Program-made: the position numbers | Shown here: one piece after another, positions 36,001-39,000 of the stretch | Layout of the letters: each line of letters opens with the position of its first letter | Position numbering within the stretch: position 1 is the first letter of the stretch | DNA from: Escherichia coli | GTDB taxonomy: Bacteria; Pseudomonadota; Gammaproteobacteria; Enterobacterales; Enterobacteriaceae | Assembly: GCF_044324875.1 (NCBI RefSeq) | Contig: NZ_CP172185.1 | Length of the DNA stretch: 64,000 bases | Direction: 5' to 3' (one strand)

Positions 36001-39000
36001 CATAAAACAATTTTACCTGACATCAAAAACATCAATTCTACTTGCGTCTGGGAAACAGGTAGAAAAGTCTTAAGAAATAATCTAGTTAATGAACAGGAAA
36101 ATCAAAAAAATGGCCAAAAGGCTGATAAATATGAAAGTAATACTAAAACAACAAAGCAAAAAATAATATATTCTTTATTAGTAAAAACATTAGCCAAAAG
36201 GAAAAGAGAAAAATTCATCAAAAATCCTGAGCTTTTTTTTTATGATTCCAAAAAGACGATAGTCAAGAGTATTGGTAAATTATATTTATCATGAATATTA
36301 AGGGGGCGCATATGTATCCGAATTATATATATCATGATTATTTTTTTTAGTTGTTAGAAATAAATTCTTAGCATGGATGCTGTTATTCTTTTTTATATAA
36401 TAAACTTTAGATAATATGAATTGTTTATTGTCAAAAATAAGTATATTTTATTGGGTTAATATATATTTGTATGGTGCATCGGAATGATTGAGTTTATTTG
36501 CTCTGAATTAAATAAAAACCCATATTTAGAAATAATTCCCAATCACAAGTCAAAAATGGTTTATATTGCTTTTTCATCGGTAGATATACCGAGAGGGGCA
36601 TTTATGTTTTGGAAAATAATCAATAGAATGGATGCCTCCAAGATTTTTATTAATGATGAACATAATGGGTGGTATGTTCATGGAATTCCTGGTGTAGGTG
36701 ATGTTAACAAAAGCATTGATTTTTTATTCAATATTTTAAATATGCTTAAAGCAGAAGAGGTAATATTGATAGGCCCCTCAATGGGGGGGTATGGTGCCAT
36801 GTTATATGGTGCTATTCTTAAAATGAAGATGCCATGGATACAATTTCGATGCCTTTCTTTTGGTGGTGAGTTTCATCTGTATATAAAGGAAGCAAGAAGT
36901 GGCAAGCTATCTAAAAAACCACGTAATCCATATTATGCTGATATAAGATGTTTAGTATCCTCATCTGAATTGGATATAGTTCAGGTTTATGGTGACGATG
37001 ATATCAATGATATTTATCAAGCCCATCTTGTTCATGGAATTAAAAATATTGATCTAATTTCTGTAAGAAATTCCCCGCATGCGGTTTCGACGTATTTAGG
37101 AAAGAAAATTGATTTAACAAAAGCAATTAAAAATTATGAATCCTATGGAAAGTTTGAGGTTGAATCTGCATCTAATGTCAGTCAATTTAAAGAGCATGGC
37201 GCTCTATTATATTTTGGTCATTTAATGATGCTTGATAATAATGCTAAAGAGGCAATTAAAAAATTAGAAAAAGCAATAACTATCATACCAGACCATGCTC
37301 TGACGCAGCATAAACTTGGACTTGCATTACTCATGCTGAAAAAAGAAAAAGAAGCACTTTTACACCAAGAATTAGCTATAAATCTAAATCCTGATCTGGC
37401 TCATGCACATTTTCATATTGCCATGCTATCAGAGATGAATGGCGATATTAAAAAGGCTGAGTATCATTACAAAGAGTGTATTAGGTCTGATGAACGTCAT
37501 ATTCGAGCATTGATTTCATTATCATTGTTATATGAAAAAGTAAAGGAGTATGAACTGGCTTTGGATTGTTCATATAAGGTTTTAGCGTATTCTGAAGGTA
37601 ATAAAATGGCCTTGGATATAGTACGAAGAATTACAAAGTAAAATAATCTGTGTCTCAGTGTAGGTATGTGGCGGTAATGATTTAACTAATAGTTATTGAA
37701 TGTTTCAGTTATACTGAATAAAATTATTATATTAATGGTTTTTAATTTGAGTAGTGTGCATTGTTTGTGTAATGAAAAGATTATTACCATTATTAATATT
37801 ATATTTAAAACACCCATAAAAAACCCAATTAACCTGTGTCTTCACCAATAAATACCCACGAAACTTCTTAAACAGTTTCATATTCGGTTTAAAATCGGCC
37901 TGCCAGAACTGGTGCAAATGCCCTTGATACGTCAAGCCCTTGATGTCGTACAGGGCATTGCCCATCACTTTGAGTGGTTTGTTATGAATCAGTGCAGAGA
38001 TCCCCGCCGTACTGTTAATCGTCACCACCGCTTTAGCATGGCGTAATAGTTCCGGCATCGGGAGATCGTGCACATAAATGACGCGCTCACCTAAGCCATA
38101 TTCCTTACTCAACCGCTTAATTAATGGTCGATAGAGTCTGTGACCACGATCCATCGGATGATGTTTGATCACCAAATAACTTTCTTTCGGCGCTTTACGT
38201 GAAAATGAGTACATGACTTCATTAATATAGTCACGCACATCGTTATAATTGCTGTGGTTACGAATCTGGCTATCGTTATATACCTGCAAAACGGCAAGAT
38301 AATAACGCTGGTCCAACTCGTTCATTAACCTCGGTAATACCTTACGCTGTGTTACCTTGTAAAGTTGCTTGCGCCAGTATGCACGAACCCAGCAACGAGC
38401 TTCATACCACGGGGAAAATGATTTATGGTGGCGGTAGCGAGGGAACTCATGACGGTAATGCCAGCCCATCAGGTAATACCACATCGCATGACCTATACGT
38501 TTCATCGTTGAAGGTTTTAAGTTCTCAACGTGCGGCGTAGGCATATCTGGTAACTTACGATAAAAATCCGGATCGCGCGGTAGCGATGAATATGCGTTCA
38601 CTCCGCCTTCTTCAACGGTAATAAATTGCGGGCGTAAATATCCTTCCTCAAATGCCAGAAAGCGGATCCCTTTCGACTTTGCCCAGCGTTTTGCTTCTTT
38701 GTGCAATGGGCGGCAGTCACCAAAGCAGAGGATGGTATCAAAGTCATATTGCCGGTGGAGATCCCGTAACCATCCGGGGAACTCTTTCGGCGTTTGGTAG
38801 TAAGCCAGGTATTGTCGATGGCGGCAGTAAAAACGATCCCCACCGTTGAATACAACATTCACAGCGTTACGTCCTAATGACTCTAACCATTCGGCGACGT
38901 CATTGAAAAAAGGTCCCATCGGCCCCTGCAATAGCAGATATTTTTTACCGGATAATAAAACGGTTAGTGCATTACCTTGCATAAATAATTTACGTAATAG

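Follow-up and report, generated by a model that had tools for sequence, protein, structure and literature searches.

Organization of the capsule locus

The window, the entire stretch of 64,000 nucleotides analysed here, contains a group 2 capsule (kps) locus in which an AT-rich region 2 of two genes is located between kpsMT and kpsSCUDEF, matching the standard group 2 order (gsp, kpsMT, region 2, kpsSCUDEF). Its chromosomal position is beside the gsp type II secretion genes and the pheV island: the upstream ORFs (19607-30068) have the order and sizes of gsp genes, annotated loci show the same context, and homology to loci carrying tRNA-Phe ends at position 46906. Region 3 consists of kpsM, which encodes the ABC transporter permease (31219-31995, plus strand; start taken from the RefSeq annotation of identical loci mapped onto the window), and kpsT, which encodes the ABC transporter ATPase of 220 amino acids (31992-32654, plus strand; Pfam ABC_tran; E = 1.6e-83 with the solved KpsT structure 8tsi). 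As expected for group 2, both genes read towards region 2 and are preceded by an ops element (GGCGGTAGCAT, 31179-31189), which was recognized upstream of kpsM by its match.

Region 1 is a single block of genes on the minus strand, kpsF-E-D-U-C-S (ORFs at 37732-45730), in agreement with near-identical loci in RefSeq. It comprises the kpsS ORF (37732-38982; 416 amino acids, ending in ...VNWVFYGCFKYNINNGNNLFITQTMHTTQIKNH before the stop) and a remainder (39017-45694, minus strand) delimited by ORFs and mapped annotation: kpsC (39017-41044), kpsU (41041-41781), kpsD (41791-43467), kpsE (43491-44639), and kpsF (44711-45694). In blastn comparisons over about 8.2 kb, region 1 is 96.8-98.7% identical to K1, K5, and other loci. 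An apparent variant patch upstream of kpsF (83% identity at 45650-45800) was discarded as an alignment end effect.

Region 2, located between regions 3 and 1, is AT-rich (32-33% GC vs 44-52% in the flanks) and serotype-specific, being carried by 14 of 5,426 genomes; a low GC content relative to region 1 has been described for region 2 (PMC7387560). It is separated from kpsT by a cassette-specific, AT-rich spacer (32655-32880, plus strand; 16-33% GC in 45-nt windows), for which neither blastn nor the alignments found homology to other types. The first gene (32881-36294, plus strand; 32.3% GC) encodes a putative capsule polymerase of 1137 amino acids with three parts: a weak GT99-like Kdo-transferase region, a HAD phosphatase, and a ribofuranosyltransferase. 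Pfam places HAD at residues 440-630 and, weakly, Capsule_synth at residues 206-327 (E = 0.06), and the matches in the PDB are the ribofuranosyltransferase 7shg and Bcs3. The second gene (36484-37641, plus strand; 32.7% GC) encodes a tetratricopeptide-repeat protein of 385 amino acids (Pfam TPR; RefSeq annotation). Its stop and the convergent stop of kpsS are separated by a spacer of 90 nt, as defined by the ORF ends (37642-37731). No terminator-like site was found in this spacer, and its folding is not significantly above that of shuffled sequences (z of -1.5 and -0.7 for the two strands). The DNA unique to the cassette spans 32637 to 37812.

The architecture of the 1137-aa protein agrees with that of the Ribf-Kdo polymerases (K13_K23 to K19 set, including K16); in the respective K types, an ORF with three domains encodes more than 1,100 amino acids (PMC13171606). 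Its HAD phosphatase and ribofuranosyltransferase parts resemble Bcs3 of Haemophilus influenzae type b. Both likenesses concern the content of the cassette and not its junction. Strain K12a, the reference for O17:H18, matches the window at 99.9-100% identity; 'K12a' is the name of the strain (PMC13248637). Serotype K12, as it might be read from the name 'O17_K12a', was therefore ruled out, also because K12 is a rhamnose-Kdo polymer and the region 2 protein combines ribofuranosyltransferase, phosphatase, and Kdo-transferase-like parts. Strain K12a presumably has capsule type K16 (Ribf-Ribf-Kdo). The domain content fits the Ribf-Kdo set, and the K type of the cassette is probably K16.

The limit of homology in kpsS

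The conserved core of kpsS (37813-38982, minus strand; residues 1-390), which encodes the beta-Kdo transferase, is 95-99% identical to the kpsS of about 1,700 other genomes, and a query spanning it was matched over at least 80% of its length in 1,712 of 5,426 genomes. The identity to other types in 200-nt windows remains at 95-99% right to the border. Among 1,746 genomes sampled for spread, megablast matches end at 37810-37828, and so do the blastn matches to seven other capsule types. Base-by-base alignment, which covered 14 kpsS and 8 kpsT contexts of the at least 85 catalogued K types, identifies the G at 37813 as the last base in common, placing the border at 37812/37813. All 14 contexts share this position, among them K1, K5, and one group 3 locus. 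In the latter, kpsS is located at the edge of the cluster.

The transition is abrupt. Within 1-3 bases, an identity of about 97% gives way to random similarity, and the genes on the far side are entirely different ones. At the protein level, the KpsS of all 14 region 2 contexts is common up to the motif N-x-V-Y-Y(G), which is followed by unrelated tails of 0-27 residues; the KpsS of K5 has its natural stop directly after YY, that is, at the border. The Pfam domain Capsule_synth covers residues 83-389 of KpsS, and the profile is matched to its last position (310/310). A sequence search of the PDB found no solved structure of KpsS. Because the border is shared by all 14 contexts and coincides with both the end of the Pfam domain and the stop of K5, it marks the end of region 1 homology and not the breakpoint of the event that introduced this cassette. 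As judged from the alignments, 37812/37813 is a fixed, universal limit between region 1 homology and the cassette rather than the crossover of a single event, and it lies at the end of the functional kpsS, not within it.

The sequence-only reading of the window had claimed that the last roughly 25 codons of kpsS and the C-terminal codons of kpsT are AT-rich like region 2, which would reveal breakpoints inside both flanking genes. The composition of kpsS bears this out, and the C-terminus is as it was written. The GC content of 37732-37810 is 19.0%, compared with 45.8% in the rest of the gene, where the lowest 79-nt window has 30.4% (mean 46.4%, standard deviation 5.0). A likelihood change-point analysis of the kpsS ORF detects a significant shift (permutation P < 0.0005) but places it at 37895, which is 83 nt inside the conserved part, so that composition alone misplaces the border. 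In kpsT, by contrast, the claim does not hold: GC content is 38.9% in 32560-32654 vs 40.5% in the rest of the gene, it falls gradually, and no split of the ORF reaches significance (best at 32465, P = 0.17).

The type-specific tail of KpsS

Beyond the border, the kpsS frame continues into a cassette-specific tail of 26 codons (CFKYNINNGNNLFITQTMHTTQIKNH) plus stop (37732-37812, minus strand; 19% GC). Even in distant blastn mode, this tail and the spacer are restricted to 14 of 5,426 genomes, all of which carry this cassette. The tail is unrelated to the tails of the 13 other contexts. An apparent partial sharing of the tail with PM06121 (homology from 37771) turned out to be a spurious blast extension once the sequences were aligned.

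The tail most likely represents a read-through into cassette DNA. The lengths of the tails among the types fit a chance read-through, with a mean of 16.1 codons vs 14.1 codons under the null model (P = 0.28), and the two single-nucleotide polymorphisms encountered in the tail within this cassette type are both nonsynonymous. Together with the tailless KpsS of K5 and the diversity of the tails, this pair of polymorphisms suggests that the tail is probably without function.

It is quite unlikely that the tail, perhaps together with the C-terminal allele of KpsT, is a functional adaptor that links the Kdo-linker and export machinery to the polymerase of the serotype. Such a role would explain why tail and cassette are strictly inherited together, why the real frame stays open longer on average than the other two (16.1 vs 10.6 and 6.1 codons to the first stop), and why the densest variable sites adjoin the border. 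However, the tails share neither sequence nor length, the latter conforming to chance, and K5 does without one; the tail of this cassette is located outside the Pfam domain, has the composition of non-coding cassette DNA, and changes its amino acid at both polymorphic sites. We consider it very improbable that the type-specific KpsS tails and the cassette-linked C-terminal alleles of KpsT are docking peptides that co-evolved with the polymerase of each serotype and couple both Kdo-linker synthesis and export to the correct biosynthetic complex. If the KpsS tails were functional after all, they would help to reveal how variable polymerases and a conserved export machinery are paired.

Nested limits of homology in kpsT

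On the opposite side of the cassette, the homology of kpsT to other types has nested end points between 32000 and 32645. They delimit a variable yet homologous 3' segment (32540-32636, plus strand), which corresponds to about residues 184-215. Homology ends at 32543 in WP2-W18, at 32570 in ATCC 25922, at 32575 in EC5654, at 32636 in K5 (patchy from about 32578), and at 32645 in FDAARGOS_1276 (with differences from about 32619). The kpsT of K1 is divergent along the whole gene, whereas its kpsM is still about 88-100% identical. The only part of kpsT that is unique to this cassette consists of the last five codons (YRIYA) and the stop (32637-32654, plus strand); in the alignment with AGR5151, the gene is near-identical up to 32636 and unrelated beyond.

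The variant C-termini of KpsT remain alignable and share the pattern FCD.A...Y....I..Y; that of this cassette is of the FYEDVQEGIEEY type. The variable segment is a functional part of the protein and falls within the fold of the solved KpsT 8tsi, to which residues 1-215 align; the last five codons thus lie beyond the aligned fold. The comparison of both genes across types, which the sequence-only reading had proposed as a check, reveals non-uniform 3' ends, in the form of unrelated tails in kpsS and nested ends in kpsT. The intragenic breakpoints in kpsT are real, with end points that vary with the type compared. The loss of homology at 32543-32645, depending on type, upholds the earlier claim of a border inside this gene, but the case rests on these nested breakpoints and not on composition.

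Recombination in the flanking regions

There is strong evidence for homologous recombination in the conserved flanks. The alleles of region 1 form a block-wise mosaic when compared with nine other loci, and identity switches from block to block in kpsC, kpsS, kpsU, and kpsMT. In the kpsS core, 1,846 of 4,656 informative site pairs (40%) are incompatible in the four-gamete test. The same cassette occurs in different flanking alleles: genomes that share it have 0-3 differences per 250 nt in region 2 vs 4-31 in most windows of the flanks, and they differ even at kpsS codons 386 and 388, which are only 7-14 nt from the border. Polymorphism peaks in the 90 nt adjoining the kpsS border (21 variable sites vs an average of about 13), which fits linkage to the cassette; local co-adaptation could also play a role. 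The literature accepts that cassettes are exchanged via their conserved flanks (PMC10433991, PMC13171598).

Origin of the cassette borders

Both conserved blocks point the 3' ends of their genes at region 2, with kpsMT of region 3 reading rightwards and kpsFEDUCS of region 1 reading leftwards. At 37813, immediately behind the last codon of KpsS that is under constraint (N-x-V-Y/F-Y-G, residue 390), the conserved DNA of region 1 stops, and the frame continues into the AT-rich cassette to the first in-frame stop, giving rise to the type-specific tail of 26 residues. Homologous recombination anywhere in the conserved flanks would move cassettes between strains, with crossovers spread over the mosaic flanks, and repeated exchange may homogenize these flanks as far as the last base in common, leaving a sharp, fixed limit in kpsS and a graded, nested limit in kpsT. 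This explanation as a whole, comprising the fixed kpsS limit, the read-through tail, and homologous recombination in the flanks, is likely to be correct. The data directly show where the borders are located and how sharp they are, that the tail is linked to the cassette, and that the flanks are mosaic. That the border reflects selection on KpsS and KpsT combined with homologous recombination is suggested by these observations, and cassette exchange itself is deduced from patterns in the sequences.

Part of the sequence-only reading is retained: the border is located inside both ORFs, and the mosaic flanks support exchange by recombination. Its breakpoint in kpsS is replaced by a universal limit. 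The event that placed the cassette in this strain is unlikely to have had its real crossovers at 37812/37813 and, in kpsT, at about 32560. The abrupt fall from about 97% identity to none, and a tail composition that is AT-rich and resembles region 2, would agree with such crossovers, but a border that K1, K5, the group 3 locus, and all other types compared have in common is not specific to one event. Moreover, genomes with the same cassette have different kpsS alleles up to 37820, which puts their crossovers elsewhere in the flank, and the end points in kpsT depend on the type compared.

A dedicated exchange site, whether integron-like, IS-mediated, or a hot spot at the YYG codons, would account for the divergence of every type within the same 1-2 codons, but we regard it as most improbable. 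Searches for direct and inverted repeats linking the ends of the cassette yielded only AT-rich matches at chance level, and no IS element or integrase is present at its borders within the window. The position of the opposite border, in kpsT, varies, and the mosaic flanks indicate ordinary homologous recombination. Divergence of unconstrained C-termini by mutation, without any exchange, can practically be dismissed: the tail does look unconstrained, but identity becomes random within 1-3 bases, the tails differ in length, different genes lie beyond, and identical cassettes reside in different flank alleles.

Comparison with other polysaccharide loci

The O-antigen cluster of E. coli and Salmonella, flanked by galF and gnd, is likewise a low-GC, variable cassette between conserved flanks that is exchanged by homologous recombination, with raised divergence in the adjoining flank genes. 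However, the flanks of the O-antigen cluster are housekeeping genes outside the pathway, whereas the kps cassette is flanked by capsule export genes with their 3' ends towards it, so that the ends of their ORFs are supplied by cassette DNA. In Streptococcus pneumoniae and Neisseria meningitidis, breakpoints are usually located kilobases out in the flanks and not at the last codons of a gene. There too, recombination in conserved flanking DNA swaps serotype cassettes and imports segments with variable ends, but organisms and pathways differ from those of the kps locus. Capsule switching in both species (cps, dexB-aliA in S. pneumoniae) has been given as an analogy (bioRxiv 10.64898/2025.12.15.689991).

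The cassette border in kpsS is a real but ordinary and already long-recognized feature of E. coli capsule loci. Work on K1 and K5 in the 1990s reportedly noted differences between types in the 3' ends of kpsS and in kpsT and proposed recombination in the flanks. The locus of the window is the same in kind as other group 2 kps loci and adds its own KpsS tail of 26 residues and its five-residue KpsT end. The organization of these loci and the replacement of their cassettes are well documented (PMC10272209, PMC10433991, PMC13171598, PMC7387560), as is the variation of kpsS length between types (bioRxiv 10.64898/2025.12.15.689991).

Apart from fixing the exact limits of this serotype cassette (32637 to 37812), the results add little beyond bookkeeping. 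They caution against delimiting cassettes by GC content alone, which misses the kpsS border by about 80 nt and fails in kpsT. Since the last codons of kpsS and kpsT are cassette DNA, they are unfit as conserved primer sites or HMM anchors in typing and annotation. The border in kpsS also accounts for the differing lengths of annotated KpsS among K types, which range from 389 to 416 amino acids.

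Organization of the locus and capsule type

The kpsS and kpsT genes lie in a standard group 2 capsule locus of E. coli. ORFs that correspond to gsp type II secretion genes extend up to 30068, followed by an ops element (GGCGGTAGCAT; 31179-31189), kpsM (31219-31995), and kpsT (31992-32654) in region 3; two AT-rich genes of the serotype-specific region 2 on the plus strand, encoding a protein of 1137 aa (32881-36294) and a TPR protein of 385 aa (36484-37641); and kpsS (37732-38982), kpsC, kpsU, kpsD, kpsE, and kpsF of region 1 on the minus strand. The two middle genes have a GC content of 32-33%, compared with 40-45% for kpsMT and kpsS and 52% for kpsC. 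In 46886-46906, homology to loci with tRNA-Phe beside kps stops at 46906, 23 nt into the tRNA position, and tRNA detection across the whole window found none; the window seems to keep just a 3' fragment of tRNA-Phe, followed by more island DNA.

The window shares 99.9-100% identity with K12a, the O17:H18 reference strain. K12a was rejected as a serotype; it is the name of the strain, which we take to be O17:K16:H18, so the region 2 cassette is likely of type K16. In the 1137-aa protein, a weak GT99-like Kdo-transferase region occurs together with a HAD phosphatase and with a ribofuranosyltransferase that is related to 7shg and Bcs3; these domains make it look like a putative three-part capsule polymerase. 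This architecture is that reported for a Ribf-Kdo capsule set including K16, for which a single RibfT domain poses a puzzle in view of the Ribf-Ribf-Kdo repeat (PMC13171606). In several of the 14 genomes carrying the cassette (loci L021, 7783-12544, and L023, 11388-12544; genome matches H87, H89, and H92), annotation splits the polymerase or TPR gene into two or three pieces, which suggests inactivation of capsule genes in some carriers.

A sharp homology border in kpsS

The AT-rich 3' end of kpsS noted in the sequence-only reading is real: GC content is 19% in 37732-37810 versus 45.8% in the rest of the gene, where the lowest value of any 79-nt window is 30.4%, and the C-terminal peptide read from the sequence matches the end of the ORF exactly. 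A change-point test inside the ORF was significant (P<0.0005) and placed the split at 37895; composition alone fails to locate the border because the last ~80 conserved bases are also fairly AT-rich. The conserved 90 nt beside the border (37813-37902) have a GC content of 33-37% and more variable sites than any other 90-nt bin of the kpsS core (21 versus an average of ~13).

Homology defines the border precisely. A megablast search with 37600-39000 found kpsS in 1,746 of the 5,426 complete genomes searched. Matches sampled over the whole ranking started at 37810-37828, with the exception of one same-type genome that matched the whole query and one truncated match. In blastn comparisons with seven other capsule types, homology ended at these positions as well, and base-by-base alignment identified 37813, the G that completes codon Gly-390, as the last common base, which leaves the junction originally proposed accurate to within two bases.

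Our alignment of kpsS 3' ends covered 14 distinct contexts of region 2, including K1, K5, E. coli B, ATCC 25922, several uncharacterised types, and one group 3 locus. All 14 encode ...KTQ(V/I)N-x-x-(Y/F)-Y, usually followed by G, and continue beyond YY(G) with 0 to 27 mutually dissimilar residues; in K5, the stop codon directly follows YY. The Pfam match to Capsule_synth, which reaches the final position of the profile, ends at residue 389. The last 26 codons and the stop (81 nt; 37732-37812) are therefore cassette DNA, not conserved kpsS. In the group 3 locus of strain 50579417 (L010, 14952-16172), kpsS (88% identity to that of the window) marks the cluster's outer edge, adjoining unrelated island genes, and its homology stops at the same YYG codons. 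The tails of FDAARGOS_1276 and E. coli B (ATCC 11303; loci L009 and L016) both begin with GEMIFNKIK, encoded by the first 27 nt past the border, and then diverge, which indicates a further breakpoint within cassette DNA.

Graded borders in kpsT

A similar shift in composition had been claimed for kpsT but is absent: GC content is 38.9% in 32560-32654 versus 40.5% in the rest of the gene, declining gradually without a significant split inside the ORF (P=0.17). The claimed intragenic border itself holds, as homology is lost within the gene. Other types share 87-100% identity with kpsT of the window up to a type-dependent point: ~32543 in WP2-W18, 32570 in ATCC 25922, 32575 in EC5654, ~32619 in FDAARGOS_1276, and 32636 in AGR5151, with patchy loss from ~32578 in K5. 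In K1, kpsT is divergent over its full length (58-83% in 60-nt windows) and kpsM is ~88-100% identical. The variable C-terminal 30 residues of KpsT are still alignable across types and fall inside the part aligning to the solved KpsT structure 8tsi (residues 1-215), and the breakpoints are therefore true ones within a gene part that is functional. Unique to the cassette are just the five final codons of kpsT with its stop (32637-32654). Homology thus supports intragenic borders in kpsT, of another kind than that of kpsS.

Recombination in the flanks and probable origin of the borders

The explanation we consider best, and hold with good though not full confidence, starts from the 3' gene ends of both conserved blocks, which face the cassette. 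Maintenance of conserved sequence, as well as its repeated homogenisation through recombination, would extend no further than KpsS and KpsT require; beyond the last constrained codon, the DNA would be cassette-specific and the reading frames would continue to the first stop. At kpsS, the outcome would be a sharp border that is universal; in kpsT, it would be a graded and nested one, and part or all of kpsT may have stayed linked to particular cassettes.

The flanks bear strong marks of recombination. Sliding identity of region 1 to nine loci switches block by block; kpsC 39850-40250 is 96.5-100% identical to EC5654, ATCC 25922, and 23AR0806 and 89-93.5% identical to the other six, including K1 and K5. 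This patch, which comprises two allele families ~9-10% apart, is clearly a mosaic block within kpsC. Of 4,656 informative site pairs in the kpsS core, 1,846 are incompatible in the four-gamete test. Genomes with the same cassette show 0-3 differences per 250 nt in region 2 and 4-31 in most flank windows, with the rise beginning at ~37672, and codons 386 and 388 of kpsS, 7-14 nt from the border, differ among genomes with identical tails; crossovers are therefore spread through the flanks, right up to the border. An actual crossover by which the strain acquired its cassette would likewise leave a sharp junction, but is an improbable reading of 37812/37813, which is the limit past which other types offer no homology for recombination, not the scar of one event. 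The proposal of breakpoints inside the conserved genes thus stands for the mosaic flanks and intragenic borders and falls for the kpsS junction as an event scar.

Still less probable is a role of the KpsS tail as a functional adaptor. Tail and adjoining TPR gene are confined to the 14 cassette-carrying genomes, even with sensitive blastn, a co-inheritance that would fit such a role. Against it, tail lengths fit the chance distance to the first stop in such DNA (mean of 16.1 codons versus 14.1 under the null; P=0.28), and both differences among same-type tails alter the amino acid (T407I and T411S). A dedicated recombination site, which would also fix a border at one position, is very unlikely: neither repeats nor IS elements mark the kpsS border or the 90-nt convergent spacer. 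Terminator-like sites and significant RNA structure are likewise absent there. That the gene ends merely diverged through mutation is hardly credible for tails so dissimilar.

Comparison with known loci

In the 1990s, sequence comparison of K1 with K5 reportedly showed divergence of kpsT and of the 3' ends of kpsS and led to the same conclusion. On this ground, and because the three-region organisation, the low GC content of region 2, and its replacement via recombination in the conserved flanks are established (PMC10272209, PMC10433991, PMC13171598, PMC7387560), we rate the finding as already known. The kpsS gene of one type is mentioned incidentally in a recent preprint as being 105 bp longer (bioRxiv 10.64898/2025.12.15.689991). 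The interpretation in the sequence-only reading describes a textbook feature; only the particular tail of one additional cassette is new.

Two loci are atypical. Strain 23AR0806 (L005, 7239-19173) has an unusual group 2 order, with kpsM at one end of region 2 and a divergent kpsT (72.7% identity to that of the window) at the opposite end, directly beside kpsS. In strain PM06121 (L020, 2153-9341), a kpsM fragment beside gsp is followed by region 2 genes, including one for an 800-aa protein of the LipB/KpsS family, and then by a complete second kpsMT.
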